From positions 1 through 15,466 of the forward strand of contig JAOUKW010000056.1 of the NCBI GenBank assembly GCA_029882335.1: a stretch of 15,466 bases of DNA. Direction: 5' to 3'. The stretch comes from Candidatus Heimdallarchaeota archaeon (GTDB lineage Archaea > Asgardarchaeota > Heimdallarchaeia > Heimdallarchaeales > Kariarchaeaceae). The notes beneath the pieces are model-generated. The model saw nothing but the letters and a program-made list of their open reading frames with translations, was not told where the DNA came from and ran no database searches. This document shows, piece after piece, positions 1 to 15,466 of this stretch; position 1 is the stretch's first letter; each line of letters opens with the position of its first letter. Both the position numbers and the translations under genes were made by a program.

Positions 1-1
1 G

Positions 2-247
2 CATGTTGCTTCATATCTAGGTGTAGTCGATTCCGAGAGAGATAAAAGATATCCTAGTAGTCCATATGATCTACCTGTAGTGGTAAGAGCAATACAGGTG
101 ACCAGAAAAAGAGATGCGTATATTAGTACAGAAAGAGAGGAAGATGGCAAACTAGATGTGGCTAATTACGATAATCTCCATAAATTAACAGAACCTCAAC
201 ACAGAGCTGTTAGATATCTGATTCGTCAAAAGGAGGTCTTACAATGA
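2..247 (+). CDS. 3' end of an unknown protein; the 5' part lies outside the window.
   Basis: Frame 2 is open from the window edge to TGA at 245-247. That stop overlaps the ATG at 244 of the next gene (ATGA overlap). It ends ...YLIRQKEVLQ*, and the SD of the downstream gene lies inside it. No recognisable domain. Confidence 0.4.
   Translation, partial: HVASYLGVVDSERDKRYPSSPYDLPVVVRAIQVTRKRDAYISTEREEDGKLDVANYDNLHKLTEPQHRAVRYLIRQKEVLQ
231..236 (+). promoter_or_regulatory. Shine-Dalgarno (AGGAGG) for the gene starting at 244.
   Basis: AGGAGG sits 7 nt upstream of ATG 244. Confidence 0.5.
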
Positions 248-1059
248 ATTTTATTTCTAAGAAATTTTGGATTTGGCAGGGCAGACGCAAGCTTAATTCA
301 GATGACCTAGCGTTAAAATATACTGGAATTCATTTTGTAGGTCAACTGGGTACAACAAGAGACTTAGATCGTTTGTATCCATTATTATCACATCAATCAC
401 AGGTAATTCGTAATATTTCTTCATTTTCGATCAAAGAAATAATTTCACGTTATAAGAATGAATCTACAATTATTTCAAAGATAAGTGAGTCCATTCATGG
501 TTTATTTACCAATTCTTCATTATTAATAGAAAAACTAGCAATAATTGAGGTAATGGGAGAACTAAATTTACAGACAAGAGAATCATGGTTGGGTGATTTA
601 GTTTCAGTGAGTGAAAATGATCTTCAGTTTGTCATTCTAAGATCATTGAAAGGAACAAAAAATGTGGATATTTTAGATGCAGTAATGGATGCAAGTGAAA
701 CAACAGATTTGGTGCTAAGAAAAGCTGCATTAACGACTTGGTATGATGGTTTACAAAATCAAGATATTCATTCCGTATTGGATTATGTCACACCAAGACT
801 CCATTATTTAATTCGTGCAACATACGAACTTCAAACAGATGGTTTGCTCATGAAACAAGTATTATCATTTTCTGAAGTAGTTAATCTTCCAAGTCCGAAA
901 GCATATCCTGATTTTATTATAAGATATTTAACTGAATTAATTGGAAACTGGGACTATGATCCTGAGGCGAATCGTTCACTGTATAGCATAGTAGTTCCTT
1001 CATATTTTACTTTTAATGATGATAAATCTGATACTGAGAGACCCTATATTATTCTTTAA
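244..1059 (+). CDS. Hypothetical protein (271 aa), possibly alpha-helical/HEAT-like; function unknown.
   Basis: Long ORF with a strong SD and an ATGA overlap with the upstream ORF. It has weak repeated helical segments (VIRNISSFSIKEI, FVILRSLKGTKNVD, LVLRKAALTTWYD) but no diagnostic motif. Confidence 0.6.
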   Translation: MNFISKKFWIWQGRRKLNSDDLALKYTGIHFVGQLGTTRDLDRLYPLLSHQSQVIRNISSFSIKEIISRYKNESTIISKISESIHGLFTNSSLLIEKLAIIEVMGELNLQTRESWLGDLVSVSENDLQFVILRSLKGTKNVDILDAVMDASETTDLVLRKAALTTWYDGLQNQDIHSVLDYVTPRLHYLIRATYELQTDGLLMKQVLSFSEVVNLPSPKAYPDFIIRYLTELIGNWDYDPEANRSLYSIVVPSYFTFNDDKSDTERPYIIL

Positions 1060-1065
1060 CACAAT

Positions 1066-1080
1066 ATGCTTTTTATTTAC
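1066..1080 (+). terminator. Oligo-T tract between the convergent genes; candidate archaeal-type terminator.
   Basis: 'ctttttattt' lies immediately after the TAA at 1057-1059. Intrinsic oligo-T terminators are typical of archaea, but AT-rich sequence is abundant here, so the call is weak. Confidence 0.2.
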
Positions 1081-1153
1081 TTCTACGTAAGTATTATTTT
1101 CTAAAACCAAATGCTGATTGAGGATAATATATTAATTATTTATATTCTATCTA

Positions 1154-2422
1154 CTACTTAAGATACTCAAATTCCGGATACAATGGATAGTTATTGCATA
1201 TTTCAGCGACATTTTCTTTAATCTTTTGTAATTTTTCCTTATTTTCAATGTTTACAAGCGTTTGTACAAACAATTCTCCTATTTCAATCATCTCATTTTT
1301 TCCTAAACCTCTTGTGGTTAGAGCTGCAGTTCCAATACGTATTCCTGATGGATCAAACGGAGTTCTTTGATCAAATGGAATCATATTTTTGTTGGTAAAA
1401 ATACCCACGCCATCTAATGTTTTTTCGGCAATTTTACCACCAATTCCATATTTTGAGATATCGATCAATAATAAATGATTGTCTGTACCACCTGAAATAA
1501 CCTCTGCATCTTGGTCAAGTAGAGAATCTGCTAAGAATTTTGCATTGTTGATAACTTTTTGAGCATATTCCTTAAAAGATGGATCGAGTGCTTCCTTAAA
1601 GCAAACTGCCTTTGCAGCGATAATATGTTCCAATGGTCCACCCTGCATGCCTGGAAACACTGCTTTATTAATCGCTGTACCGTGAGCTTCTTTTGCCATA
1701 ATAATTGCACCACGTGGACCTCTGAGTGTTTTATGTGTAGTGGTTGTTACAACGTCACAATATGGTATAGGGTCTGGATGAACCTTTCCAGCAACAAGAC
1801 CTGCAATATGTGCAATATCCGCCATCAAGATGGCACCTACTTCATCTGCTATTTCTTTAAATGCCTTGAAATCTAATGTTCTAGAATATGCTGAGAATCC
1901 TGCGAGTATCAGTTTTGGTTTTTCTTCTAGAGCTCTTTTTCGAACTACATCCATGTCAAGCATTTTTGTCTCAGGATCAACACCATAAGACGAAAATTTA
2001 TAGAATTGACCTGAAAAATTAACTTTATGTCCATGTGTTAAGTGACCACCATGATCTAGACTCATACCTAATATGGTATCTCCCAAGTTAAGTAAAGCAA
2101 AATATGTCTCCATATTTGCTTGAGATCCCGCATGTGGTTGTACATTGACATATTCTGCACCAAATAATTGTTTGGCTCTATCGATAGCCAAGTTTTCTGC
2201 AATATCAATGAATTCATTTCCCCCATAATATCGTTTGGAAGGATATCCTTCACTATATTTATTAGTAAGAACTGAACCCGCTGCCTGTAATACTGCTTTT
2301 GAAACATAATTTTCTGAGGCAATCATCTCTAGACCATCTCTTCCTCGATTTAACTCGTTCAATAAAACAGTATAAATCTCCGGATCAACATTCATTATAT
2401 CCGACATAAAACGTCCGTTCAT
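1154..2422 (-). CDS. glyA: Serine hydroxymethyltransferase (PLP-dependent, bacterial/GlyA type).
   Basis: Full-length 422-aa ORF containing the canonical SHMT motifs: ...[13 protein letters not shown]; HAGSQAN; the PLP-lysine region [13 protein letters not shown]; [10 protein letters not shown]. The true start may be the second Met (MSDIMNV..., start at 2407). Confidence 0.95.
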
Positions 2423-2440
2423 AATTTATCCGTAGAAATC

Positions 2441-2450
2441 ATGTATAAAA
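2441..2450 (-). promoter_or_regulatory. Candidate TATA box for glyA, which looks leaderless.
   Basis: On the minus strand, TTTTATACAT lies at about -28..-19 relative to the A of the glyA ATG, and no SD is present. This fits an archaeal leaderless transcript with the TATA centred near -25. Confidence 0.3.
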
Positions 2451-2558
2451 TCAGATTGAAAAGACAATAGTATAAAGGGAATTTCACCTGCTTTGATTAG
2501 TACAAACATATATAGTATCTGAAAAAATTAAGTTCTCGGTAAATACATATGTAAAATA

Positions 2559-2643
2559 TGCGGGGGGTGGGATTTGAACCCACGAATTTCTAAAAAACTA
2601 GGATCTGAACCTAGCGCCGTTGACCAGGCTGGGCGACCCCCGC
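2559..2643 (-). tRNA. tRNA-Leu (anticodon CAG), class II with a long extra arm; CCA is not encoded.
   Basis: Read on the minus strand: GCGGGGG-U-C-GCC[13-nt D loop with GG]GGC-G-CTAGG-TTCAGAT-CCTAG-[14-nt extra arm TTTTTTAGAAATTC]-GTGGG-TTCAAAT-CCCAC-CCCCCGC-A. It has a 7-bp acceptor stem, a 3-bp D stem as in Leu/Ser tRNAs, a perfect 5-bp anticodon stem, U33 and A37, a T-loop TTCAAAT and discriminator A73. It is a GC-rich island in AT-rich DNA. An oligo-T (AATTTTTT) follows the 3' end on the minus strand. Confidence 0.85.
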
Positions 2644-2665
2644 TTATACTTACTAACTGTTGTAA

Positions 2666-2684
2666 TGGATAAATTAAACGTTTT
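2666..2684 (-). promoter_or_regulatory. Candidate archaeal TATA/BRE promoter for tRNA-Leu.
   Basis: On the minus strand, AAACG-TTTAATTTAT lies with the TATA-like element about 26-35 nt upstream of the mature tRNA 5' end. Confidence 0.25.
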
Positions 2685-2711
2685 AGTTAATGAATATTCA
2701 TTAAACTTCGA

Positions 2712-3578
2712 TTAATCAAAATTTATAATTTTTAGTTTATTATATCTGAGAAAAGCAAGAATTGCAGTTGCTATCCATAATCCGCCAGCTATAATTCCTA
2801 TTAATATTCTAGTTATTGAATCAATCTCTAATATATTTAGTATTAGTATTCCCAACATTAAAACGTACATTATTGTAAATATATACCCCAGTGTTTTCAT
2901 TATGCTTAGATGTTGTGTGGTTAATTTTGCTTGTTTATTATTAAATACTAATTCTGAATAATTGGTGTAATATTTTGAGAGTGTGTAGGTGTACTGTATC
3001 CCCAAGGTGATTAGTAATCCAATTAATAGATTGATACTGTAATTAGAATCTAATCCTACAAATCCAAATGTACCAAATATAGCAGAGATGATTAATGAAT
3101 TCAAAAAAATATTAATATCAACAACACCTCCAACTACAATTTTTCTTGGTCGAAGAGTGTGTTGAAGGGTATTTTCGGTGGGTGGTCTGGTAGGGTTGAT
3201 GGAATAATCTCCAAGGTCTTTTTGATATGCTTCTTTGAATTTTGCTTTTACATTGTAGATTCCTTTTTTATATCTATCAGTTGTTATATTTCGTTTGACT
3301 AATCTAACTAATGTGAGTAAACCTATTATAAGAAGAAATAAAAGTACATTAATTACTAGAATAAATATATTATTATTTTCCCTGATATTGAAGGTATTAT
3401 TTGTTGCATTCATCAATAATAGAAATAAGCTACTCATAACTAGTGTAACGAAACTCATAAAAAATTTCAACCTATTCTCACCAATTTCATCATTTTTTAA
3501 CAACAATTCAGAGAGTATTTCATATTCTGTAAGTAAAAATTCACTCGCTTGTCTATCTAAACCTTGGTTATTACTCAT
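2712..3578 (-). CDS. Hypothetical polytopic membrane protein (288 aa).
   Basis: Long ORF with a soluble N-terminal helical segment followed by about 6 hydrophobic stretches (e.g. FFMSFVTLVMSSLFLLLM, IFILVINVLLFLLIIGLLTLV, IFTIMYVLMLGILILNIL, ILIGIIAGGLWIATAILAFL). No recognisable catalytic motif. Confidence 0.6.
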   Translation of the reverse strand: MSNNQGLDRQASEFLLTEYEILSELLLKNDEIGENRLKFFMSFVTLVMSSLFLLLMNATNNTFNIRENNNIFILVINVLLFLLIIGLLTLVRLVKRNITTDRYKKGIYNVKAKFKEAYQKDLGDYSINPTRPPTENTLQHTLRPRKIVVGGVVDINIFLNSLIISAIFGTFGFVGLDSNYSINLLIGLLITLGIQYTYTLSKYYTNYSELVFNNKQAKLTTQHLSIMKTLGYIFTIMYVLMLGILILNILEIDSITRILIGIIAGGLWIATAILAFLRYNKLKIINFD

Positions 3579-3712
3579 AACTTGCTTTGATAATAACTAT
3601 TTAAAAAATTAAAGTGTTTTGCGTATTTTATTAGATAAATAATCGAAAGTAATTGATTTCTATTAATCCAAATAATAAAAAATTAAAGGTGAGAAAATTA
3701 TTTTAATTTGCT

Positions 3713-4477
3713 ATGCATCCACTATTGGATCAATCATTATCTGCTGAGAGAAGGATTCAAGCTTGTTTTCAATTACAAAATGAAGAAATTGAGCTGGCTG
3801 TAGAATTATTAAGTCAGGGTTTATTTACCGATCCTAGTCCAATCGTTAGGCATGAATGCGCATATACACTAGGTGAAATCTCAACACCTCAATCTATTAA
3901 ATCACTTATTCATGCAATAGAAACAGATTCTAATGATTTTGTTGTTCATGAAGCTGCATTAGCTCTATCGAATCTAGGTGAAGGTGCACAATATTTTCAA
4001 AACTTATTAAAATCAAATAATCTCGATATTGTATGTACTGCTGAAATTTCGCTTCAAAGAATGAAGATGAAAAAAAATCAACAATCAATTGAAGATTTTA
4101 CATCATCCTATAATTCTCTTATCATGGATTTACATAAACCTGCTGAACATAGAATTCAAGCTGCATTTAAATTGATGAAGGAGGGTTCTGAATCCTCCAT
4201 AACTCAACTGATTTCTGCGATGAAACAGGAGTCAGACCCAATCGTAAAACACGAGATCATATTTTCTCTTGGTGAGACTGCATCCATAATTGCTGCAGAG
4301 GCATTGGCCCAAGAGTTAGAGAAGGATGCAAATTTATTTGTTATCCATGAAAGTCTTCTTGCTTTGGGAACCTTGGGTTATCCTGATTATTTACCAATAA
4401 TATCTAGTTTTCTTGAACACGAACATGCAGACATAAAGGAATCTGCAGAAATCGCAATAGAACGGCTTCAATCATAA
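3713..4477 (+). CDS. HEAT-repeat protein with four His-Glu pairs in two symmetric halves; deoxyhypusine hydroxylase (DOHH)-like.
   Basis: There is an internal duplication: AERRIQACFQL...DPSPIVRHECAYTLGEI...NDFVVHEAALALSNLG is mirrored by AEHRIQAAFKL...SDPIVKHEIIFSLGET...ANLFVIHESLLALGTLG. The HE pairs fall at about residues 47, 80, 181 and 213 (spacing 33/101/32). This matches the spacing and flanking residues of eukaryotic DOHH motifs (xLLKHELAYCLGQ, PMVRHEAGEALGAIG, and RFRALFTLR before each half), as recalled from memory. Phycobilisome-lyase-type HEAT repeats normally have VRxxAAxALG without HE. Confidence 0.85.
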   Translation: MHPLLDQSLSAERRIQACFQLQNEEIELAVELLSQGLFTDPSPIVRHECAYTLGEISTPQSIKSLIHAIETDSNDFVVHEAALALSNLGEGAQYFQNLLKSNNLDIVCTAEISLQRMKMKKNQQSIEDFTSSYNSLIMDLHKPAEHRIQAAFKLMKEGSESSITQLISAMKQESDPIVKHEIIFSLGETASIIAAEALAQELEKDANLFVIHESLLALGTLGYPDYLPIISSFLEHEHADIKESAEIAIERLQS

Positions 4478-4522
4478 TCATTGGATAGTGTATTATTGTA
4501 ATTTTATGCTGAAGATTGAACC

Positions 4523-5308
4523 TTAAACTTCATGTTTTGTTTGAATAATAAATTCTTTTGTTGTAATGTAATCTTCAAATGATATTTGTAGTGCTCCGCT
4601 GAGTGGATTATCCATATCATGAATTATGATATATGATAGAAAGACTAATACAGAAACAGAGAAAAGAATTATAATATATAATTTGAAACTTTCAAATCCA
4701 TCAATTAGGTACCCAAACCAGAAGAAAAATGATGCAGTGATATAAAATACTCGAAGCATTCCTGGCATTTGGCTTTTACAATGTTTTATTCTTTGTGATC
4801 GTGCGGTTGCTAATTTTTGATATGCATGCATGATTGATTCAAATGCAATTGGATCTCGGGGATCATCAAATTTTATTTTATCAATAACTCTTATAATGGC
4901 AATTAATTCTTTTGATGGATATTTCACAGGTTTCTGATTTCTTAACAGGTCAAACTCTGAATTTAATGTGGAATCAATATAGTTAATTAATGCTGGCTTC
5001 ATTTTATTGGTGGTTTCCTCACTGTTTAGATAATCACAAAAATTCCAAAGTGATACCAAAGCGTTTGCTTCTTCTGCAAATACATTCTCTGTAGATGTAA
5101 AATGAGACCACACCGTAACTAAAATAAATGCTGTAATCAGGGAGTACAATGTTCCCATTACTCCAATCACATCTGATATTCTTATTTCTGATAATTCAAT
5201 ATACAAATTCTTAAAAAATTGATGATAAATCACTCCAAAAAGTGTTGATGTGAAAATATAAATAGTCGTTTTAACAATCAACTTTGATTTTTTATATGGA
5301 TGTTGCAT
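4523..5308 (-). CDS. Hypothetical membrane protein (261 aa), arranged as 2 TM - soluble domain - 2 TM.
   Basis: N-terminal hydrophobic segments (TTIYIFTSTLFGVIY, VIGVMGTLYSLITAFILVTVW), a central soluble region of about 120 aa, and C-terminal hydrophobic segments (VFYITASFFFWFGYLI, LYIIILFSVSVLVFLSYIII). Confidence 0.6.
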   Translation of the reverse strand: MQHPYKKSKLIVKTTIYIFTSTLFGVIYHQFFKNLYIELSEIRISDVIGVMGTLYSLITAFILVTVWSHFTSTENVFAEEANALVSLWNFCDYLNSEETTNKMKPALINYIDSTLNSEFDLLRNQKPVKYPSKELIAIIRVIDKIKFDDPRDPIAFESIMHAYQKLATARSQRIKHCKSQMPGMLRVFYITASFFFWFGYLIDGFESFKLYIIILFSVSVLVFLSYIIIHDMDNPLSGALQISFEDYITTKEFIIQTKHEV

Positions 5309-5505
5309 AAATCGAAGTTATGAAATATTTATTTAAGAATTTTCAATAAAAAGATTATAATTACAACTCAATCTTATATATTTTTTACATTAACTTGATT
5401 ATAACTATTAAAATATTACTTATAGATAAGATTACAAAATTTATTTTACTAATTCAGCATATTCTCTATCACAATGATATTAATTTTCAAAAATAAATTT
5501 CGACT

Positions 5506-6654
5506 ATGGATACATTCTCATTATCAGAGGATCAAGTTCTTATTAGAGAAACAGCAAGAGATGTTGCAAAAGAGAAGATAGCTCCATTGGCTTCTGGATT
5601 TGATGCACGAGAGGAATTTCCGTGGGAATCTGTTAAACAATTACAGGAATTGGGATTTATGGCAATGATGGTCAGTCCTGAATATGGTGGAAGTGGTTTG
5701 GATACTCTCAGTTATTCAATTGCAATGGAGGAAATAAGTGCAGCTTGTGCAAGTACTGGAGTAACAATGAGTGTTAATAATTCACTGGCTGCATATCCTC
5801 TTGAGGCTTTTGGAACTCATGAACAAAAAGATGTATTTTTGCGTTCTATTGCTGACGGTGGGGGACTTGGTGCATTTGGATTGTCTGAACCGGACGCTGG
5901 CTCGGATGCTGCAGGTATGAAAACAACTGCAATACTTGAAGGTGATAATTGGAAATTAAATGGTTCCAAGATGTGGATAACAAACGGGGGAGTGGCTGAT
6001 GTTTACATCATTTTTGCAAAAACAGATGTGAATGCTGGTCACCGTGGGATATCTGCATTTATACTTAAAAAAGGTGATATTGGATTTGAGATAGGTGCTC
6101 CTGAGAAAAAGTTAGGAATTCGAGCATCAACCACCACCCCACTCCAATTTGATGAATGTATTATACCTCATGATCGTTTACTTGGAAATGAAGGTGACGG
6201 TTTTAAGATAGCCATGAAAACATTAGATGGAGGTAGAATTGGGATTGCATCTCAGGCACTGGGTATCGGTCAAGCAGCAATAGACGCTGCTATTGAATAT
6301 GCAAAAGTAAGGAATGCATTTGGAGGTCCTATCGCTCGGTTTCAAGGATTGCAGTGGAAAATTGCAGATGCAGCTATGGAGATAGAAGCGGCAAGAATGA
6401 TTACTTGGAAAGCGGCACGAATGAAGGACGCTGGTCAAAATTATACATTGCAGGCGGCGATGGCGAAGTTATACAGCAGCGAAGCCTCAGTACGAGCTGC
6501 TGATATGAGTCTGCAAATTCATGGTGGAGCTGGGTACAGTAGAGATTTTCCTGTTGAGAGATATTATCGTGATTCTAAGATAACTGCAATTTATGAAGGT
6601 ACTTCCGAAATTCTTAGACTAGTAATTGCTCGTGAATTATTAGGTAAATACTAG
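5506..6654 (+). CDS. Acyl-CoA dehydrogenase (FAD-dependent, short/medium-chain type).
   Basis: 382-aa ORF with the typical ACAD layout: a GxSEPxAGSD-like substrate loop (GLSEPDAGSDAAGM), MWITNG, and the C-terminal IYEGTSEI with the catalytic Glu. There is no SD; an A/T box (TATTAATTTT) lies at about -28..-20 from the ATG. Confidence 0.93.
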   Translation: MDTFSLSEDQVLIRETARDVAKEKIAPLASGFDAREEFPWESVKQLQELGFMAMMVSPEYGGSGLDTLSYSIAMEEISAACASTGVTMSVNNSLAAYPLEAFGTHEQKDVFLRSIADGGGLGAFGLSEPDAGSDAAGMKTTAILEGDNWKLNGSKMWITNGGVADVYIIFAKTDVNAGHRGISAFILKKGDIGFEIGAPEKKLGIRASTTTPLQFDECIIPHDRLLGNEGDGFKIAMKTLDGGRIGIASQALGIGQAAIDAAIEYAKVRNAFGGPIARFQGLQWKIADAAMEIEAARMITWKAARMKDAGQNYTLQAAMAKLYSSEASVRAADMSLQIHGGAGYSRDFPVERYYRDSKITAIYEGTSEILRLVIARELLGKY

Positions 6655-6657
6655 ATT

Positions 6658-7284
6658 TCAATTCGTACCTCTTTCAATTTCGTTATCAGGTATATATTTT
6701 GTATAATATCCGATATTATTGAGAATTTTAATTAATTCTTCAAGTCTTATATTCAACTTTTGTTCATTCAATAGCTGTTGCTTATCCAAAGGACTAAGTT
6801 GCAATGTAAATATGATACCATTTAGCAGATCTTCTGCAGGTATTTTATTTAAATCCTCAACAATAATTCTGCTTCTTTTTGAAAATTCGTTCATTGAATG
6901 AAGTAATTTATCTGTTAGTGTGGTTTTATTATTTTCATTCTCCCAGTATTCTGGTCTAATATTAATAATTTTACCCTGTTTATATGGTGTTATTGTATCA
7001 TTAAGTTCTTCAATTTCTACCGTTTGGATACCATGTAAAACGATGTTTGATCTACCATCTGTAAGTGATTGATGGTGGATTATTTTTCCAATGGTTGCAA
7101 TGTGATTTGGCTTATTATTGGCCATCAATTGTGTTATACAAATTAATCTTTCATTTTCAGGTAATGCAAGCATATCTTTAATCATTATCTGATATCGGTT
7201 TTCAAAGATATGTAGTGGCAAAATGACTCTGGGAAAGAAAACCATATCAGATAGTGGAAAGAGGGGATATGATTTTCCTATCAC
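6658..7284 (-). CDS. Stand-alone Lon protease N-terminal (substrate-binding, PUA-like) domain protein; no ATPase or protease domain.
   Basis: N-terminus YPLFPLSDMVFFPRVILPLHIFENRYQIMIKDML matches the LON_N hallmark (LPLfPL..vlFPg..lpLhIFEpRY). It is 208 aa and ends 3 bp from the ACAD stop on the opposite strand. Confidence 0.8.
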   Translation of the reverse strand: MIGKSYPLFPLSDMVFFPRVILPLHIFENRYQIMIKDMLALPENERLICITQLMANNKPNHIATIGKIIHHQSLTDGRSNIVLHGIQTVEIEELNDTITPYKQGKIINIRPEYWENENNKTTLTDKLLHSMNEFSKRSRIIVEDLNKIPAEDLLNGIIFTLQLSPLDKQQLLNEQKLNIRLEELIKILNNIGYYTKYIPDNEIERGTN

Positions 7285-7444
7285 AATAATATAATAAAGC
7301 TAAATGTATTTAATCCTTATTGCAAGATAATGAAATAAAAATACATTTTAACGTTTATAGGTCATCACAGTAATTATTTATATTTTAAATGTTCATACAA
7401 TCAACACACCAAATGTCTAAATAGATACTTTATGATTTGAATTT

Positions 7445-8416
7445 ATGGTACACATACCGTTTAATGAAGATATTTTAATTTGGGTTGCAGAACATCGATT
7501 TTACTTGCTAACCTTCATTATGTCATTTTTTACTCATATAGGTAGTATTGAAGGTTATATCCTATTGATCTGTGGTATTCACTGGTTGTATAATAAAAAC
7601 GTTGGTGTGAGAGCAGGTGTTGCACTTTTGATTTCTGCGATATTAAATCATACACTCAAGATTATTATTAAAAATCCAAGGCCATTTATAGAATCTGGAG
7701 AAACTGATAAGTACTGGGCCAAACCATTTCTAGAAGCAGATGAATCTGAACTGGGTTATTCAACACCTTCAGGACATGCAATGGGATCTTCTACTTTTTT
7801 TAGTTATATTTATTTAAAGAATAAATCAAGAAAATCACTCATAATATCATTCATTTTTATTTTTATGATCGGAATTTCAAGACCATATTTAGGTGTGCAC
7901 TACCTTGAGGATGTATTATTGGGTTGGATGATTGGCATACTAGTTACTTTACTTGTCTTTAAGGTAGAACCTGTAATTCCAACTATTTGGAATAAACAAA
8001 GTGAATCAGTAAAATATATAATACTTCTAGTACCTGCACTACTAACAACAATTATTTCAGGTGTAGTAACAAATTATTCTGAGGATGGAACTGCATATGT
8101 TACACTTAGTGGAATATTAAGCGGTGCATTATTTGGATATGTCTATGAATTAAAAGCAAATGACTTCGATGAGGATTACGATGAGGTTTATATTGGAATA
8201 CTGCGATATATTTTAGGAATAGTACTAGTATTTAGTTTTCAAATTGGTTTAGATGAAATATTTGCAATTATTTCTGATGATTATTCTTTATTAGGATATA
8301 TCTTACGGTTGATTCGATATTTTTTAATTGGTTTTTCAATAACATACCTTGCCCCATTTCTCTTTGTGAAGCTAAATTTAGCAAAAACACGGATAGAAGG
8401 CAATAAATCAGAATAG
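7445..8416 (+). CDS. PAP2-family membrane phosphatase (phosphatidic-acid / undecaprenyl-PP phosphatase-like) with an extra C-terminal multi-TM extension.
   Basis: All three PAP2 signature motifs are present: KIIIKNPRP (Kx6RP), PSGH (TPSGHAMGS) and SRPYLGVHYLED (SRx5Hx3D). About 150 additional residues with 3-4 hydrophobic helices follow the core. Confidence 0.88.
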   Translation: MVHIPFNEDILIWVAEHRFYLLTFIMSFFTHIGSIEGYILLICGIHWLYNKNVGVRAGVALLISAILNHTLKIIIKNPRPFIESGETDKYWAKPFLEADESELGYSTPSGHAMGSSTFFSYIYLKNKSRKSLIISFIFIFMIGISRPYLGVHYLEDVLLGWMIGILVTLLVFKVEPVIPTIWNKQSESVKYIILLVPALLTTIISGVVTNYSEDGTAYVTLSGILSGALFGYVYELKANDFDEDYDEVYIGILRYILGIVLVFSFQIGLDEIFAIISDDYSLLGYILRLIRYFLIGFSITYLAPFLFVKLNLAKTRIEGNKSE

Positions 8417-8426
8417 ATTATCAGTG

Positions 8427-9320
8427 TTAGTCATCTTCAAGGATGTCTATTGCCTTCTTATTTTTTAATTTACTTAGGGTTGGTTGTTCTGAATGACCTC
8501 GAGTAATGAGATACATTTGCTCTTTTTTTGCCCACACATATCCTTTTTCTCCTTTTGAGAAGTTGTCATGGGGAAATGCGCCTATAGCTAATTCAGTACT
8601 GATATATCCATCTCTTCTTTTAATATGAACCATGCCTGCTTTATCCTTTGTAACTGAATGTTGAACAGTAGCAATATCACCTCTAGAAACATGTTTAATT
8701 GGTACAATTACTGTTTTAGCATAATTTGCGATGATGTAGGCAAACAATTTAGAGATAAAATAACCACTCATAATTGCTAGAAACAGGTTCCAATCTTGCA
8801 AATTATCAATTAATGACCATCCAACTTGACCAAATATTAATGTAAATACTGCAATATTTCCCATCATATAGTTTGATTTCTCTACATGGGCATCATGTAC
8901 AATACCAGCATCAATTTGATCTGGTAGATGATCGAAATGACCTTGCAAGACGGAATGTTCTGTAGAGGTTTCAAGGAGGGAATCACTATTAAGATCGCCA
9001 TCAAAGTCATGACCATCCATATCAAAGTCGGTGTCGGCATCAAAGTCATGACCATCCATATCAAAGTCGGTATCTGCATCAAAGTCATGACCATCCATAT
9101 CAAAGTTGGTATCGGCATCAAAGTCATGACCATCCATATCAAAGTCGGTATCGGCATCAAAGTCATGACCATCCATATTGTGTGAGTCTACATCAGAATC
9201 TTCATCTCCAAGTCCACCTATGATGGTAAATACTAGAAATATCAATCCAAAAAAGAATGAAGTGATGAAGATAATCAACCATACTTCTAGTGGTAATAAG
9301 TTCACAATTAATTTTGTCAT
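8427..9320 (-). CDS. NfeD-like membrane protein (short form, C-terminal OB-fold) with an inserted Asp/His-rich tandem-repeat region.
   Basis: N-terminal TM (LIIFITSFFFGLIFLVFTII), then roughly 5 copies of MDGHDFDADTDFD, then further TM segments. The C-terminal beta-rich segment (GMVHIKRRDGYISTELAIGA...GEKGYVWAKKEQMYLI) is typical of NfeD OB domains. GGAGG SD lies 7 nt upstream. The gene starts 23 bp after the flotillin stop, so this is an operon. Confidence 0.85.
   Translation of the reverse strand: MTKLIVNLLPLEVWLIIFITSFFFGLIFLVFTIIGGLGDEDSDVDSHNMDGHDFDADTDFDMDGHDFDADTNFDMDGHDFDADTDFDMDGHDFDADTDFDMDGHDFDGDLNSDSLLETSTEHSVLQGHFDHLPDQIDAGIVHDAHVEKSNYMMGNIAVFTLIFGQVGWSLIDNLQDWNLFLAIMSGYFISKLFAYIIANYAKTVIVPIKHVSRGDIATVQHSVTKDKAGMVHIKRRDGYISTELAIGAFPHDNFSKGEKGYVWAKKEQMYLITRGHSEQPTLSKLKNKKAIDILEDD
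8999..9180. repeat. Direct tandem repeat, 39-bp unit x ~4.7 copies, in frame inside the NfeD-like gene.
   Basis: Unit catcaaagtcatgaccatccatatcaaagtcggtRtcgg at 8999-9037, 9038-9076, 9077-9115, 9116-9154, plus a partial copy from 9155. The copies are near-identical (1-2 mismatches). On the minus strand the unit encodes MDGHDFDADTDFD. Confidence 0.9.
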
Positions 9321-9327
9321 ATAATTT

Positions 9328-9332
9328 CCTCC
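9328..9332 (-). promoter_or_regulatory. Shine-Dalgarno (GGAGG) for the NfeD-like gene.
   Basis: Minus-strand AAGGAGGAAATTAT-ATG, with a 7-nt spacer. Confidence 0.5.
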
Positions 9333-9343
9333 TTGAATTTACT

Positions 9344-10948
9344 TTAAACAATGAGCTGTCTTAGTTCAGAGAGTTGAATGTCTGGTTTTCCATCTCCATC
9401 AAGATCCAACGCATCAACTATTCCATCACCATCATTGTCAATGAAGGTCACTTGTTCTGGAAAGGGGAAATCTATTGTTCCATTTCCATTCAAATCTACA
9501 CCATTTACATTTCCATCACCATTTAAATCAACAAATGATATTCCTGGTGGTAGTTTGGGGAGCTCTAATTTTAATTTTTCAGGATTCCCATTCTTAGGTG
9601 ATTGTCCGCGAATTGATCTCATTAAACCTTCGAGATCCAATCCAAATGATTTAGCAAGTGCCATTACTTGTAGTAAATTCTTAGGAATAATTCCTAAAGG
9701 CGAATTTTCACCATCTGAAGAATTATTACCACCCATATTTAACCAGTTAATGTCACCTACTTTCATTGAACTTGCAATATTTGGTAATTGATTTACAAGT
9801 TCTTGCAATATCATAGCTTCATTCACCATACCTTGTGCTTTTACTTTTTCTCTCAGACCTTCTGCTTCAGCAAGTAAGATTGCCTTTTTACCCTCTGCTT
9901 CTGCCAAAAGTGATTGTTTCTTTGCTTCGGCTAGCTTGATCTCAGCTTGGGCATCCATATCTGCTGCAAGTAATTTTGCTTGTGCCTCAATTTTGATTGC
10001 CTCCGCTGTAGCTTCTGCCATTAGTTTTTTCTGCTGTGCCTCTACTTGGATATTTTCGAGTATGTGTTTTCTCTTTTTAGCTTCTGCCTGTAATTCAATC
10101 TCCATTAACTTTGTTTCAGCTTCTACCTGAAGTTTTTCCTTTTCAAGAGTGGCAATTTTTACTTCTCGGGTTTTCTGGAGTTCTTGTACAGTTCTAAGTC
10201 TTTGTTCTTCTTGATGATTCATTTTCTCTGTTTCTTGAACAACAACTTTATCTCTTTCTAGTTCTGAGATTTGTACTTCTTGTGATGAAAGAGCTCTTGC
10301 TTTTGCAATTTCTTTTTCTGTTTCTATCTTCTTGTTCTCTGCATTTAGCCTGGCTTCTTGTTTGTATTTTTGTTGAAGGTCCTCAAAAAGGTCTACATCT
10401 AATACATCTACATGTCTAATTTCTGCAGTATTTATTTTAATACCCATTGGACCTACCACTGTAACTAATTCAGCAACTAATGCCTCTATTATGAGTGATC
10501 TCTCTCTGAGAACTTGATCCAATGATAATCTTGCTACGGTTGTTCTAACTATACTTTCCACCAATCTTGATATTGTCTCATTAATGTGTGTCATTACACC
10601 TGATCCTTTATTACCAGATAAACTCTGATAGGCAATCTCTGGGTTCTCAATTCTCCATAAAACAAATCCAATAACTCTAACATCTTGGTTTTCTGCAGTG
10701 ATAACCTCACCAGCGTTAACTTCTAATTGTTGTACTGTAGTAGTTAAAACAATTAATTGGTCGATTAATGGAAGGACAAAGTATCCTCCACCATATCCAC
10801 TGTTCTTCAGCACACCATTTCTAAATCGAAGCACAAAATCCTGATTTGTGAATTTTCTGTATCGACTTTTTATAATAGCTATGGTTGCAGTCATAATAAT
10901 GAATGCACTAAGTGCAATCGTTAATCCGGTTTGAAATTCCTTTACCAT
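9344..10948 (-). CDS. Flotillin-type SPFH/band-7 membrane scaffold protein with a C-terminal calcium-binding (DxDxDG) repeat tail.
   Basis: N-terminal TM (LTIALSAFIIMTATIAII), an SPFH domain (about aa 50-230) and a long Glu/Ala/Lys-rich coiled coil with flotillin-style EA repeats (LLAEAEGKKAILLAEAEGLREKV). The C-terminus reads DLNGDGNVNGVDLNGNGTIDF...DNDGDGIVDALDLDGDGKPD, i.e. four DxDxDG loops. AGGTGA lies upstream of the ATG. Confidence 0.9.
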   Translation of the reverse strand: MVKEFQTGLTIALSAFIIMTATIAIIKSRYRKFTNQDFVLRFRNGVLKNSGYGGGYFVLPLIDQLIVLTTTVQQLEVNAGEVITAENQDVRVIGFVLWRIENPEIAYQSLSGNKGSGVMTHINETISRLVESIVRTTVARLSLDQVLRERSLIIEALVAELVTVVGPMGIKINTAEIRHVDVLDVDLFEDLQQKYKQEARLNAENKKIETEKEIAKARALSSQEVQISELERDKVVVQETEKMNHQEEQRLRTVQELQKTREVKIATLEKEKLQVEAETKLMEIELQAEAKKRKHILENIQVEAQQKKLMAEATAEAIKIEAQAKLLAADMDAQAEIKLAEAKKQSLLAEAEGKKAILLAEAEGLREKVKAQGMVNEAMILQELVNQLPNIASSMKVGDINWLNMGGNNSSDGENSPLGIIPKNLLQVMALAKSFGLDLEGLMRSIRGQSPKNGNPEKLKLELPKLPPGISFVDLNGDGNVNGVDLNGNGTIDFPFPEQVTFIDNDGDGIVDALDLDGDGKPDIQLSELRQLIV

Positions 10949-11308
10949 ATTTCATTTCACCTTGTGTTTAATTAGCTATATAGTTAATATAATATGATAT
11001 TTTGTTTTATATCATCATATGCTTATACTATTTACTATGTTTCTGTATAAATATTCTCGTGGCAAATAATAAATACATTCTATATATTATATATATTATA
11101 TATATAAAATGTATAATTTGATATAAGCTCTGTAATCAACTGAAATACTATAATTACTAATCAAAGCATTAATTTCTTTGCAGAAGTATAAATGTCAATG
11201 TAATTTGATTGTAATCAAAAAATCACTTAATGTGTAAATATGTTGATGTTTTTATGTATTTGTGTGAAAAAATCAATAAATCAGTACTAGGGAGTTATAT
11301 ATAATAAA

Positions 11309-12088
11309 ATGAAATTTACCATAATGGGAATATCAACTCGTATACAAATGTTGAATCCTTCCTTAAGGCCTTCTAATGCCAAAACTAGGTCATCTCAGAA
11401 ACAAAAAACACTACCAAAGAAACAAACCAAAAATAAAATGAGTGAGACCTTTCAAAATAAAAGTATATATTTCTACCGCATTTTATTACACGTATTTGCA
11501 TTCACAATGGCCGTGACAAGTTTAGTTGCATATGACCCTGTAACTCTGACAGGCTTTATATTAATCCCACTAATACTCTGGATTACCCATAAATCCATCG
11601 TTAATGGTGTAGAGATATTTATTCAGATATCTTTCTTTACCATACGTTTTTTCCATTTAACTACTGCATCTCTACTCGATGGATTCACTGAACGACCCTA
11701 TCAAACTTCAAAAGGAAAAAAAATAATTCCTGAATTGAATAAATCGCTATCAGCTAAAAAGACTAATTCAAAAACAAATAAAGGAAAAATATACATCACA
11801 GAGAAAAAATACAATGAGGTTAAAAATAGAAAAAATGTCTCACTATTAAGGGGTATTATCTGTCTAATTGTATTAGTTAGTTCGATTCTTTTTATAATTT
11901 GGCTGGTTTTATTGGTTCTGAATACTAATCTTGAAGGATATGTGAATGATCCTGGTATTCCACCATTGATACGGAATTATTTCTTCTTTATTGTAAATTT
12001 CAAGGTTTTTTTTATATTTCCTATATTCGGGCTGATACAAGAAATATTTGGGAGTATTCGTATAGGTGGGATTAAACTTATCAAATAA
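11309..12088 (+). CDS. Hypothetical orphan membrane protein with basic low-complexity segments; the start codon is uncertain.
   Basis: ORF of 259 aa containing Lys/Ser/Thr/Gln-rich stretches (PSNAKTRSSQKQKTLPKKQTKNK; KKTNSKTNKGK) and 4-5 hydrophobic helices. Alternative internal starts (MGIS..., MSETFQNK...) are equally plausible. No similarity was recognised. Confidence 0.45.
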   Translation: MKFTIMGISTRIQMLNPSLRPSNAKTRSSQKQKTLPKKQTKNKMSETFQNKSIYFYRILLHVFAFTMAVTSLVAYDPVTLTGFILIPLILWITHKSIVNGVEIFIQISFFTIRFFHLTTASLLDGFTERPYQTSKGKKIIPELNKSLSAKKTNSKTNKGKIYITEKKYNEVKNRKNVSLLRGIICLIVLVSSILFIIWLVLLVLNTNLEGYVNDPGIPPLIRNYFFFIVNFKVFFIFPIFGLIQEIFGSIRIGGIKLIK

Positions 12089-12296
12089 TAAATAAGTACT
12101 ATTAAATTTGAATTACTTTTGTTAATAATCGATTAAAAGTGTGATGAGTTCTTCTTTTATTTGTTTTCATAAGCTTAAAATGAATCCAAAATATTAAATT
12201 ACTATAATTAAAGAAGCAACTTAAAGGTATTTATAATAATGGAATAATTAAAATACCATTTTTACAATATAGTATCTAATTTAATGGTGAGTAAAA

Positions 12297-14240
12297 GTGA
12301 TAAACAAAAATAAGTCCATCTCGGATAGAAATTCATTTGGATTAAATAATTTGGACTTGGATTTATTGTTGCAACATATTCCCACTGCCATCGCAATATT
12401 TGATACCAAGATGAGATATATTGCCTGTAGTGATCGTTATCGAATTGAAAATAATATTGAAAATCAAGACATTGAAGGAAAAAGCCATTATGATATATTT
12501 CCAGATATCCCTAAAAAATGGAGAGAAGTTCATCAAAGATGTTTAGCTGGATCTTCTGAAAGTGCTATTAGAGATGTTGTCGAACGAAAGGGAATAAAAG
12601 AATGGATTACATGGAGTGTTATTCCTTGGTACCATGCAGATAATGAGATTGGTGGTATAATATTATTTACAGAAAGCTCCACCGAATTAGTTACGAAAGA
12701 AAATGAACTACAAGAAAGCAAGGAAATCTTTCAATTTGCTGTTGAAGCAGCTAATCTAGGTATTTGGGATTGGAATATTGAAACAAACGAGGTGTTCTTC
12801 TCTACCCAATGGAAAAAAATGTTAGGATACACCAACGATGAAATATCTAATAACTACAACGAGTGGGAAAGATTGGTTCATCCTGATGATAGGAATAAAA
12901 TTTTGAGTGTGTTGAATGGTTATTTAAAAGGTGAAAGCAATAAATATCAATCAGAACATCGTTTACTTTGTAAAGATGGATCATACAAATGGATATTAAC
13001 CAGTGGAAAGGTAATTTCCAGAAATAGTAAAGGAGATCCAATACGAGTGATGGGTATTCATAGTGATATCAATCAGGAAGCAATGGAAAAACTGAAAAAA
13101 GAACAATCAAATAAAATGGAAGTAATTGGGATGTTAGCGGGAGGTGTTGCACATGATTTTAATAATCATTTAATGGTTATCCAGGGTTACAGCGATTTAA
13201 TTGCAGATCAAATGGTTCATAATACTTCCATTCTGGATAATATTTTTAAAATTAGAGAAACAGTTGATAAAGTGAAAAAATTAGTTACAGAGTTATTAAC
13301 TGTAAGTAGTAATCAGATTATTAATCAACAGGTTTTATCCATAAATGATGTGATATTAAGATCGACAAAAACAATTGACGACCTATTAACTGATCATATA
13401 AAAATGAAATTGCAACTTGAGGGAAAGGGATTCATTAAAATCGATATGGGTCAATTTGAACAAATCCTTGTCAACCTCACTTTAAACTCACTAGAAGCTA
13501 TGTCTGCTGAAGGTGAAATTCTAATCAAGACTAAAAATATTACTATTACCTCGGACAATCAGCAACATTATCAATTTATGAATATTGGTGATTATATTGA
13601 ACTGACTTTCTCTGATACTGGAGTAGGAATGAGTCAAGAAGTACTTGATAAAATATTTGTTCCATTTTATTCAACAAAAGAAGGTCAAAATAGAGGTTTA
13701 GGATTATCTACTGTATTTGGTATTGTCAATCAAAATAAATGGGAATTAGTGGTTGAATCTACAATTGAAAAAGGAAGCACATTTACATTCTTTATCCCAA
13801 TTACAGATGAGCGAATTACAAAAACAACTATAATGAGGAATCCCATATATTCCAATGTGGGAAAGACGACTATATTATTGGTTGAGGATAATACTGATGT
13901 ACGGGAAATAATTTCGTTATCATTAAGAAGAAAAGGCTATGAAGTGCTTGAGGCGACCAATGGGGAACAAGCATTAAAATTATTTGAAAAAAATCGATCT
14001 TCTATTCATGTTACTTTAACAGATGTAATGATGCCAGTTATGGATGGAGAGGAATTGGCTTTAAAATTACTCGAATTAAATTTTAATAATATCATATTTA
14101 TGTCTGGATTTGACAAACAAATATTTTCCAAACAAAGGTTGAGAGATGAGAATTTGATCTTTTTATCCAAGCCATTATCCATTAAAGATTTACATAATAC
14201 AATTCAGGAACTAATCAGTTTAAAGTCCTTATCTAATTAG
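12297..14240 (+). CDS. Soluble hybrid sensor histidine kinase: PAS-PAS-HisKA-HATPase_c-receiver.
   Basis: GTG start with GGTGA 7 nt upstream; the first in-frame ATG would truncate PAS1. PAS1 is about aa 20-130. PAS2 is about aa 145-260 (NLGIWDWNIETNEVFF...HRLLCKDGSYKWILTSGKVI). The H-box is GGVAHDFNNHL (His286). The ATP-binding region carries N, G1 (DTGVGM) and G2 (GLGLS) boxes. The receiver has ILLVEDN...LTDVMMPVMDG...LSKP (Asp576). No TM segments. Confidence 0.92.
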   Translation: MINKNKSISDRNSFGLNNLDLDLLLQHIPTAIAIFDTKMRYIACSDRYRIENNIENQDIEGKSHYDIFPDIPKKWREVHQRCLAGSSESAIRDVVERKGIKEWITWSVIPWYHADNEIGGIILFTESSTELVTKENELQESKEIFQFAVEAANLGIWDWNIETNEVFFSTQWKKMLGYTNDEISNNYNEWERLVHPDDRNKILSVLNGYLKGESNKYQSEHRLLCKDGSYKWILTSGKVISRNSKGDPIRVMGIHSDINQEAMEKLKKEQSNKMEVIGMLAGGVAHDFNNHLMVIQGYSDLIADQMVHNTSILDNIFKIRETVDKVKKLVTELLTVSSNQIINQQVLSINDVILRSTKTIDDLLTDHIKMKLQLEGKGFIKIDMGQFEQILVNLTLNSLEAMSAEGEILIKTKNITITSDNQQHYQFMNIGDYIELTFSDTGVGMSQEVLDKIFVPFYSTKEGQNRGLGLSTVFGIVNQNKWELVVESTIEKGSTFTFFIPITDERITKTTIMRNPIYSNVGKTTILLVEDNTDVREIISLSLRRKGYEVLEATNGEQALKLFEKNRSSIHVTLTDVMMPVMDGEELALKLLELNFNNIIFMSGFDKQIFSKQRLRDENLIFLSKPLSIKDLHNTIQELISLKSLSN

Positions 14241-14332
14241 AATTTATATGGATACTTCGAAATCTTACAATAAATCTTGTTTACATTTCCTCTGAAAATA
14301 ATGATTTCTAAGTGAATAATGGGTTTTGTACT

Positions 14333-14863
14333 TCAACTTTTTAGCAAGTGACTAAATTGCTTACGAAATTTTATTACCTTTGGTTCAACCACAAATTTAC
14401 AATATGGTTGATTCGGATTATTTACGAAGTAATTTTGATGATACTTCTCTGCTTCATAAAATCGATCCAAGGGCGTAACTTCAGTGACGATTGGATTTTT
14501 CCAGATCTTTTGTTCTGTAAATTCATTTATTATTTTTTCTACAATCTGTTTTTGTTCTTCATTTTCATAAAGAATTATAGATCTGTATTGAGGTCCTACA
14601 TCATTTCCTTGTCGATTTAGAGTTGTAGGGTCATGAATTGATAAAAAGATGTTTATTATTGTTTCAAATTTAATTTCATCAGCATTGAATGAAATTTTTA
14701 CAATTTCTGCGTGCCCTGATTTTCCAGAGCAAACTTCCTCATATGTTGGATTTTCTTTCATTCCTCCAGCATAACCAGAGATTACTGATGTAACTCCAAT
14801 TAATTCCACATAAACTGCTTCTACACACCAAAAACATCCTCCTCCTAAATATGCGGTACTCAT
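14333..14863 (-). CDS. msrA: Peptide methionine-(S)-sulfoxide reductase MsrA.
   Basis: N-terminal GGGCFWCVEAVY (the catalytic GCFWC motif), HDPTTLNRQGNDVGPQYRS, and EKYHQNYF near the C-terminus; 176 aa. Confidence 0.95.
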   Translation of the reverse strand: MSTAYLGGGCFWCVEAVYVELIGVTSVISGYAGGMKENPTYEEVCSGKSGHAEIVKISFNADEIKFETIINIFLSIHDPTTLNRQGNDVGPQYRSIILYENEEQKQIVEKIINEFTEQKIWKNPIVTEVTPLDRFYEAEKYHQNYFVNNPNQPYCKFVVEPKVIKFRKQFSHLLKS

Positions 14864-14999
14864 CTTTTTAATATAATATATTGCAATGTTATATACCTAA
14901 CGAAAAGGGAGCTCACAAGTTGAAATAAAATAATTTATATTGATTTGTTAATAGAAATAATATCGATATTTTAATTACAGGTAAATGATAGGTTGAATT

Positions 15000-15395
15000 A
15001 TGGGTAGTAAACATTCTGTTCGATTTGATGTTCGATTTCGAGATACAGACGCCATGGGACACGTTAATAATGCTGTATTTGCTACTTATTTAGAATCAGT
15101 ACGAATTAATTGGTATAACTCATTAGAGCAAAGTAAAATTCCAGAAATGATACTTGCTAGATTAGAAATTGATTATAAATTACCAATAAAGATTGAGCAC
15201 AAGATTCAAGTGGATATGTGGGTATCGAAGATTGGTACTAAATCATGGACTTTTGAATATGAAATTATGGATTATACCAACAATCAAACTTTTGCTATTG
15301 CAAAAACAGTGATAGTATGTTATGACTATAAAGAACACAGATCAATTCCTATACCTGAATTCATGAAGTCTGAAGTTGAAAAACTTGTCATTTAA
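15000..15395 (+). CDS. 4HBT/YbgC-family acyl-CoA thioesterase (hot-dog fold).
   Basis: The N-terminal VRFRDTDAMGHVNNAVFATYLE matches the 4HBT/YbgC signature (DxDxxGHVNNAxY, catalytic Asp17); 131 aa, a typical size. Confidence 0.88.
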   Translation: MGSKHSVRFDVRFRDTDAMGHVNNAVFATYLESVRINWYNSLEQSKIPEMILARLEIDYKLPIKIEHKIQVDMWVSKIGTKSWTFEYEIMDYTNNQTFAIAKTVIVCYDYKEHRSIPIPEFMKSEVEKLVI

Positions 15396-15466
15396 TAGAG
15401 ATTAGAACAGTTTCTGATAAAAATTGTATAATTTGATCCTGAACTTCATTATTTTTGAGTATCCCT

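Follow-up and report, generated by a model that had tools for sequence, protein, structure and literature searches.

Without an archaeal deoxyhypusine hydroxylase (DOHH; EC 1.14.99.29), it is unexplained where the hydroxylation step in hypusine formation originated and how some archaea come by their hypusine. Reviews from 2016 to 2021 describe archaea as having deoxyhypusine synthase (DHS) but no DOHH orthologue. DHS itself has been reported in all archaeal genomes (PMC5178350), and deoxyhypusine-aIF5A is therefore expected in every archaeon. Can any of them take the modification further? A contig from a Candidatus Heimdallarchaeota archaeon of the Kariarchaeaceae (GCA_029882335.1, JAOUKW010000056.1, positions 1 to 15,466; in the following, the window is this whole stretch of 15,466 nucleotides) bears on this question. 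It contains a complete open reading frame (ORF; 3713..4477, + strand) that starts with ATG and encodes 254 amino acids followed by a stop, while the opposite strand is closed. The original prediction, made from the letters alone, took the product for a DOHH-like, two-fold symmetric HEAT protein in a probable archaeon. The literature bears out its premise that archaea have no known DOHH. Judging from a complete signature of ligand and substrate-binding positions and from a predicted closed two-arm fold specific to DOHH, we place the protein in the DOHH family as a new member from the archaea. With a probability of about 0.65, its function would be the O2-dependent hydroxylation of deoxyhypusine on aIF5A.

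The protein consists of an N-terminal arm (residues 1-127; 3713..4093, +), whose helices span residues 11-121 in the structural model, and a C-terminal arm (residues 128-254; 4094..4474, +) that includes a short inter-arm linker and was delimited by alignment and model. Aligned over 119 positions, the two halves show 34% identity, and the proposed internal tandem duplication is thus real. Each arm carries two His-Glu (HE) pairs, and all four motifs quoted for them are present: RHECAYTLGE (residues 46-55) and VHEAALALSNLG (78-89) in the N-arm, KHEIIFSLGE (179-188) and IHESLLALGTLG (211-222) in the C-arm. The pairs themselves are H47-E48 (3851..3856), H79-E80 (3947..3952), H180-E181 (4250..4255) and H212-E213 (4346..4351), all on the + strand, and they correspond to H56-E57, H89-E90, H207-E208 and H240-E241 of human DOHH. 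Their spacing is 32/101/32 and not 33/about 100/32 as first given, one residue off; in human DOHH it is 33/118/33. The first helix of each arm contains the element RIQACFQL (3752..3775, +) or its C-arm counterpart RIQAAFKL (4151..4174, +). The element expected before each half as RxRAxFxL is therefore there, but it reads RIQAxFxL, with Gln replacing the second Arg. A C-terminal EHEHAD (residues 235-240; 4415..4432, +) was also found as described. It aligns to SDPVIE, at non-ligand positions of human DOHH. As a motif it lacks conservation: of its six residues, H236 alone is found again (38 of 45 orthologues), and the other positions are variable. We rejected it as an additional metal motif for this lack of conservation, and consider a metal site there unlikely.

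Is this protein a DOHH, or does it belong with the generic HEAT proteins? Searches of Pfam and NCBIfam gave only generic families for it (HEAT_2, HEAT_PBS and NblB/CpcE-like) and no DOHH-specific one. The repeat models scored above the gathering threshold (HEAT_2 121 bits, HEAT_PBS 48.7 bits), and eukaryotic DOHHs match them likewise. When the protein was compared with PDB sequences, its best natural match was human DOHH (4d4z), with HE aligned to HE, at an E-value of 4.7e-17 for the single sequence and 2.3e-28 for the profile. In a global alignment to human DOHH, whose sequence was verified against 4d4z fragments, all four HE pairs are in register at ~27% identity. The other strong PDB matches are synthetic consensus alphaRep proteins, which have VR..AA (Arg-x) at the HE positions. 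With the family profile these alphaReps outscore DOHH because the scores of many repeats add up, and a sequence score alone therefore cannot separate DOHH from generic HEAT proteins. The matter is decided by conservation, family boundaries and fold together.

The AlphaFold2 model is of high confidence (predicted local distance difference test score, pLDDT, 97.4; predicted template modeling score, pTM, 0.93), and only the inter-arm linker dips to a pLDDT of ~89. It shows an all-alpha HEAT protein built, like DOHH, as a symmetric dyad: two pseudo-symmetric arms of four repeats each fold back onto one another in the manner of the human enzyme. A Foldseek search with this model ranked human DOHH first (template modeling score, TM, 0.85; 3.2 Å), while alphaRep, armadillo and PBS-lyase structures all remained at TM <= 0.45 with a root mean square deviation (rmsd) above 11 Å. 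Among the fold matches, only DOHH reproduces the predicted relative placement of the arms, which creates the active site. Over its full length, the model superposes on the peroxo-diiron structure 4d4z at 2.5 Å. PBS-lyase-type HEAT proteins (PF03130/PF13646; CpcE/F, NblB, MTH187, alphaRep) differ in being open solenoids without the closed dyad and in having Arg-x where the window protein has His-Glu. We know of no metal site in these proteins.

The HE pairs are also what the family conserves. Across 45 full-length orthologues of 42-53% identity, H47, E48, H180, E181, H212 and E213 are invariant, and H79 and E80 are each retained in 44. The absence of HE conservation in orthologues, which would have spoken against a DOHH, was thus not observed. 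A clade alignment of 139 proteins (45 Heimdall-type, 58 DPANN-type and 36 eukaryotic) extends this picture. All eight His/Glu residues as well as G54 (3872..3874, +) and G187 (4271..4273, +) are conserved in every clade, with HE pairs 1, 3 and 4 at 100% and pair 2 at >=98%; G187 reaches 100% and G54, invariant in the family, >=97% in all clades. Further positions kept in all three clades are F19 (human F29) in the N-arm first-helix element, R147, F152 and L154 in its C-arm counterpart, and L65, V77, G89 and L218. The boundary of the family was set by searching 1.84 billion cluster representatives exhaustively with phmmer: matches of 250-460 amino acids all have four HE pairs with a spacing of 32-33 per arm, whereas giant generic HEAT proteins with similar scores show no periodic HE. 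The short matches include named eukaryotic DOHHs, among them a Galdieria protein and many from plants and fungi. Such retention of the HE pairs is far beyond chance. In two Kariarchaeaceae orthologues (P0008 and P0009), a 7-residue insertion between HE1 and HE2 widens the spacing from 32 to 39, and the N-arm loop thus tolerates length variation.

In human DOHH, the di-iron center is anchored by H56, H89, E90, H207, H240 and E241, and the deoxyhypusine side chain is bound by E57, E90, E208, E241 and two glycines (PMC9117371). Counterparts of all six iron ligands are present and conserved in the 254-aa protein. The substrate-binding residues correspond to E48, E80, E181, E213, G54 and G187, which are likewise conserved across clades; G54 and G187 match human G63 and G214, although the paper prints G65 for the glycine that is G63 in our alignment. 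We see the likeness to human DOHH (4D4Z/4D50) and yeast Lia1 in the four HE pairs in register, in the two glycines and in the first-helix R..A.F.L element of both arms. The differences lie elsewhere. At 254 residues, the window protein is shorter than the human enzyme (~300), its inter-arm linker is ~17 residues shorter and has no SVDPAPP motif, and the C-terminal FQYADGL tail is missing. Its RIQA stands against R-F/Y-R-A in eukaryotic DOHH. It also has LGE for LGQ, F for M86/M237, L for E244 and A for C122/C273.

These data suggest a working model. The eight His/Glu residues, two HE pairs from each arm, would assemble a non-haem di-iron center at the arm interface. Archaeal DHS would supply deoxyhypusinated aIF5A as the substrate, and the product would be hypusine-aIF5A, formed in an oxygen-exposed marine Heimdallarchaeon. 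The habitat plausibly suits an O2-dependent enzyme. The nearest relatives include a marine surface-water Heimdall lineage, and RS678 is the only Asgard metagenome-assembled genome (MAG) from marine surface water (Eme et al.). Kariarchaeaceae also carry cytochrome oxidase genes, although the complexes were judged incomplete and probably non-functional (Zhang et al.). Surface water and oxidase genes together make an oxygen-exposed lifestyle plausible for the lineage.

The protein is not an isolated case among archaea. It has more than 45 orthologues on archaeal contigs, which reach 1.13 Mb and have ribosomal and eIF-1A genes nearby. MAGs named Nanoarchaeota or Nanoarchaeia encode a second two-arm family (~270-300 aa, ~30% identity), in one case on a contig of 1.09 Mb. 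These DPANN proteins (among them P0063, P0204, P0249 and P0252) share the two arms, the four HE pairs with the same spacing, the LGE and the archaeal hosts with the window protein, and differ from it in their greater length, a C-terminal PY(R/S)G tail and a clade of their own, which two single-arm proteins join (75/100 bootstraps). Stand-alone single-arm HEAT proteins of ~130-147 aa with two HE pairs are also encoded on archaeal contigs as long as 200 kb (L084:8001-8438, L086:6262-6675 and L088:8001-8441; also L099, L101-L104, L107, L108, L110 and L121). Their genes lie deep inside the contigs and are therefore not fragments, and no second half-gene adjoins them. Representatives such as P0053, P0260 and P0262 have the same arm module at half the size, are the nearest relatives of the Heimdall arms (39-42% identity), and would need to dimerize to form a four-HE site. 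Such proteins may represent ancestors of DOHH that work as homodimers, or else halves of it that arose secondarily. The single-arm locus L084 and the two-arm DPANN-type locus L090 are syntenic (GyrB, methyltransferase, SecDF, TatD ... NOG1, RimK, Rpp14), which suggests duplication or halving within that lineage.

In the searched literature, nothing links DOHH with Asgard archaea, Heimdallarchaeota or DPANN archaea; hypusine appears together with Asgard only in the context of spermine synthase, and together with DPANN only in that of aminoacyl-tRNA synthetases. The portion of the Eme et al. 2023 supplements that exists in text form mentions neither hypusine nor DOHH nor K06072. Automatic annotation by JGI labels several relatives 'deoxyhypusine monooxygenase', and the similarity to DOHH is therefore visible in databases, though undiscussed in the literature we searched.

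Gene neighborhoods at a few other loci may connect the family to hypusination. At one locus (L133:2857-9092; Logan SRR21363124_14), genes for DHS, an Orn/Arg decarboxylase, a CN-hydrolase and an agmatine deiminase are followed by the gene for P0101, a four-HE DOHH-like protein with a signal-peptide-like N-terminus, in an apparently complete hypusination operon. Divergent from this operon stands a gene for a 221-aa protein with an acidic N-terminal extension, of IF5A only the N-domain, and an LKAGKHGGPK loop. This is a strong case of guilt by association, and a single one. A TauD/GBBH-like oxygenase gene adjoins the operon. Elsewhere, DHS is found 2.6 kb from the DPANN-type gene P0063 (L089:8001-12586; ENA ERZ25074195, the contig of 1.09 Mb), with CysRS and an FKBP26-type gene in between; in L102 and L107 the distance from DHS to a single-arm gene is 6-7 kb. 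In L086, aIF5A lies 4 kb from the single-arm gene, with an FKBP26 gene between them. The aIF5A encoded there (L086:10733-11122) has the loop SKTGKHGHAK, identical to that of eukaryotic eIF5A. The corresponding loops read SRPGKHGHAK in a Woesearchaeota locus (L045) and SKAGKHGAAK in an Aenigmarchaeota locus (L068). With three aIF5A sequences, we also considered whether a eukaryote-like loop (TGKHGHAK) might go along with the presence of a DOHH-like gene.

Several points weigh against the interpretation proposed here, among them the history of the two arms. We split all proteins into their arms and built a crude neighbor-joining tree from 120 columns. N- and C-arms of the same clade are 34-38% identical, whereas arms of the same position share 25-33% across clades. 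Arms accordingly group by clade first and by position second. The eukaryotic N- and C-arms together exclude all archaeal arms in 100/100 bootstraps, positional grouping was obtained in 0/100, and the arms of the window protein are thus not positionally orthologous to those of eukaryotic DOHH. Every arm class has its closest relatives among the single-arm proteins. Clade-wise grouping of this kind does not support a single ancient fusion inherited by the three clades, and a shared two-arm ancestor, which one-to-one orthology with eukaryotic DOHH implies, was not recovered in this tree. On these alignments, intragenic gene conversion or separate duplications of an ancestor with one arm would fit better, and archaea and eukaryotes probably acquired the two-arm fusion independently of each other. 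The most likely route to the two-arm form would be a tandem duplication, apparently separate from the eukaryotic one, of a single-arm ancestor that worked as a homodimer. Strict orthology with eukaryotic DOHH is doubtful because of this arm phylogeny. What is weakened is the claim of orthology, not the claim of a DOHH-like way of working. The suggestion of a bona fide DOHH homologue consequently holds as far as family membership goes and needs qualifying beyond it, as the arms were apparently duplicated separately in archaea and eukaryotes.

Other points on this side concern the active site and the genomic setting. Iron binding, O2 activation and the substrate are things that we infer, and that the ligands would meet in a single di-iron site between the arms is implied by the superposition of a model on 4d4z. 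In both arms, archaeal and eukaryotic proteins differ consistently beside the HE motifs (LGE vs LGQ, F/I vs M237, L/F vs E244) and at C122/C273, where archaea have A; these archaeal-specific positions may reflect the surface of aIF5A or another substrate. The second HE pair lacks one of its residues in two orthologues, P0019 (HK) and P0024 (RE), which may represent inactive copies, functional variants or errors of sequencing. DHS and aIF5A are absent from the 15.5 kb contig. When 53 DOHH-like loci and a set of archaeal controls were scanned with hidden Markov models, DHS or aIF5A was found within +/-6 kb at 2 of 29 long loci and 2 of ~23 controls, i.e. without enrichment, and the operon of L133 does not recur at the two related loci L134 and L135. 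Finally, Crenarchaeota in which hypusine was chemically detected lack the DOHH-like family. It is therefore not a general archaeal hydroxylase and leaves the hypusine of Crenarchaeota unexplained.

Much of this would also suit a di-iron oxygenase with the DOHH fold that acts on another target, be it a polyamine-modified protein, a free polyamine or another small molecule. The independent duplication of the arms, the consistent substitutions beside the HE motifs, a linkage to DHS and aIF5A that does not exceed background, and the variety of formats in which the HE-HEAT module occurs (single-arm and signal-peptide-bearing relatives) all agree with such an enzyme. Set against it are the conserved counterparts of human E57, E208 and the two glycines that hold deoxyhypusine, as well as the tight operon of L133, where DHS, an IF5A-like protein and polyamine synthesis are joined to a DOHH-like gene. 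To our knowledge, deoxyhypusine hydroxylation is moreover the sole activity of this fold. The expected substrate, deoxyhypusine-aIF5A, should be at hand in every archaeon (PMC5178350). We thus consider the same chemistry on a different substrate unlikely, though it is the main alternative, and hold hydroxylation of deoxyhypusine on aIF5A to be the probable activity.

Two further explanations deny the protein either its catalysis or its archaeal origin. It could be a non-catalytic scaffold of the PBS-lyase type whose HE dipeptides are incidental, as the purely generic Pfam and NCBIfam matches and the repeat-summed scores of the alphaReps might be taken to indicate. Near-invariant HE pairs at 42-53% identity and across three clades, together with the Arg-x and the lack of periodic HE in generic HEAT proteins, speak so clearly against this that conservation and fold effectively refute it. 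A eukaryotic DOHH gene, brought in by contamination or by recent horizontal transfer, would agree with the earlier view that DOHH is restricted to eukaryotes and with the fact that Asgard MAGs can include mis-binned contigs. Its neighbors are of archaeal type, however. The serine hydroxymethyltransferase (SHMT) of the window is nearest to those of an archaeal MAG (L001, 78%) and of Heimdallarchaeota RS678 (69%), and the divergent SHMT/DOHH-like pair is retained in L001 (46% identity). NCBI lists the exact protein as a HEAT repeat domain-containing protein and names its source Candidatus Heimdallarchaeota, so that the probable archaeon of the original prediction can be affirmed. The more than 45 orthologues on long archaeal contigs, the low identity of ~27% to eukaryotic DOHH and the exclusion of all archaeal arms from the clade of eukaryotic arms make a eukaryotic source of the gene highly improbable. 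An archaeal enzyme that hydroxylates deoxyhypusine thus remains our preferred interpretation.

Within the window, the DOHH-like gene stands alone between a tRNA-Leu with an unannotated ORF and a bestrophin-like gene, and its neighbors differ in other Heimdall genomes. The remaining genes include SHMT, acyl-CoA dehydrogenase, a Lon-N domain protein, flotillin, a hybrid histidine kinase and MsrA. Taken by themselves they suggested a bacterial contig, a reading that we rejected in view of the NCBI name and of the archaeal loci nearest to SHMT. After the two archaeal MAGs, the next matches of SHMT (1154-2422, - strand) come from Woesearchaeota (~60%) and various bacteria. This hints at an exchange of SHMT or of the region between marine Heimdallarchaeia and DPANN, both of which carry DOHH-like genes. 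Neither Pfam nor NCBIfam gives a match for four ORFs of 259-296 aa (244-1059, +; 2712-3578, -; 8427-9320, -; 11309-12088, +). One of them, the 288-aa ORF at 2712-3578, lies directly upstream of the DOHH-like gene and divergent from it; L001 apparently has no counterpart at this position, as far as the short distance from SHMT to the DOHH-like gene there can tell. Two genes are bacterial-looking, namely those for a hybrid PAS/histidine-kinase/receiver protein (12297-14240, +) and for a stand-alone Lon N-terminal substrate-binding domain protein (6658-7284, -).

The protein from Heimdallarchaeia offers a concrete candidate for an archaeal hydroxylase, with a complete active-site signature, and similar proteins exist in DPANN archaea. 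The single-arm relatives and the clade-wise arm phylogeny allow a rare look at the assembly of a pseudo-symmetric di-iron enzyme. A broader scenario is tentative, and we hold it to be possible though rather doubtful: hydroxylation would not be a eukaryotic invention but would go back to a single-arm, two-HE homodimer, whose stand-alone genes persist in archaea and which was fused at least three times (in eukaryotes, Heimdallarchaeia and DPANN), and Heimdallarchaeia would make hypusine-aIF5A by means of O2. Heimdallarchaeia are the Asgard group nearest to eukaryotes. In this scenario, the closest archaeal relatives of eukaryotes already produce fully hydroxylated hypusine-aIF5A using O2. If the function proposed here is right, an O2-dependent modification of a translation factor would join the eukaryote-like traits of Asgard archaea, and would bear on the timing of oxygen's entry into the biology of the host lineage.

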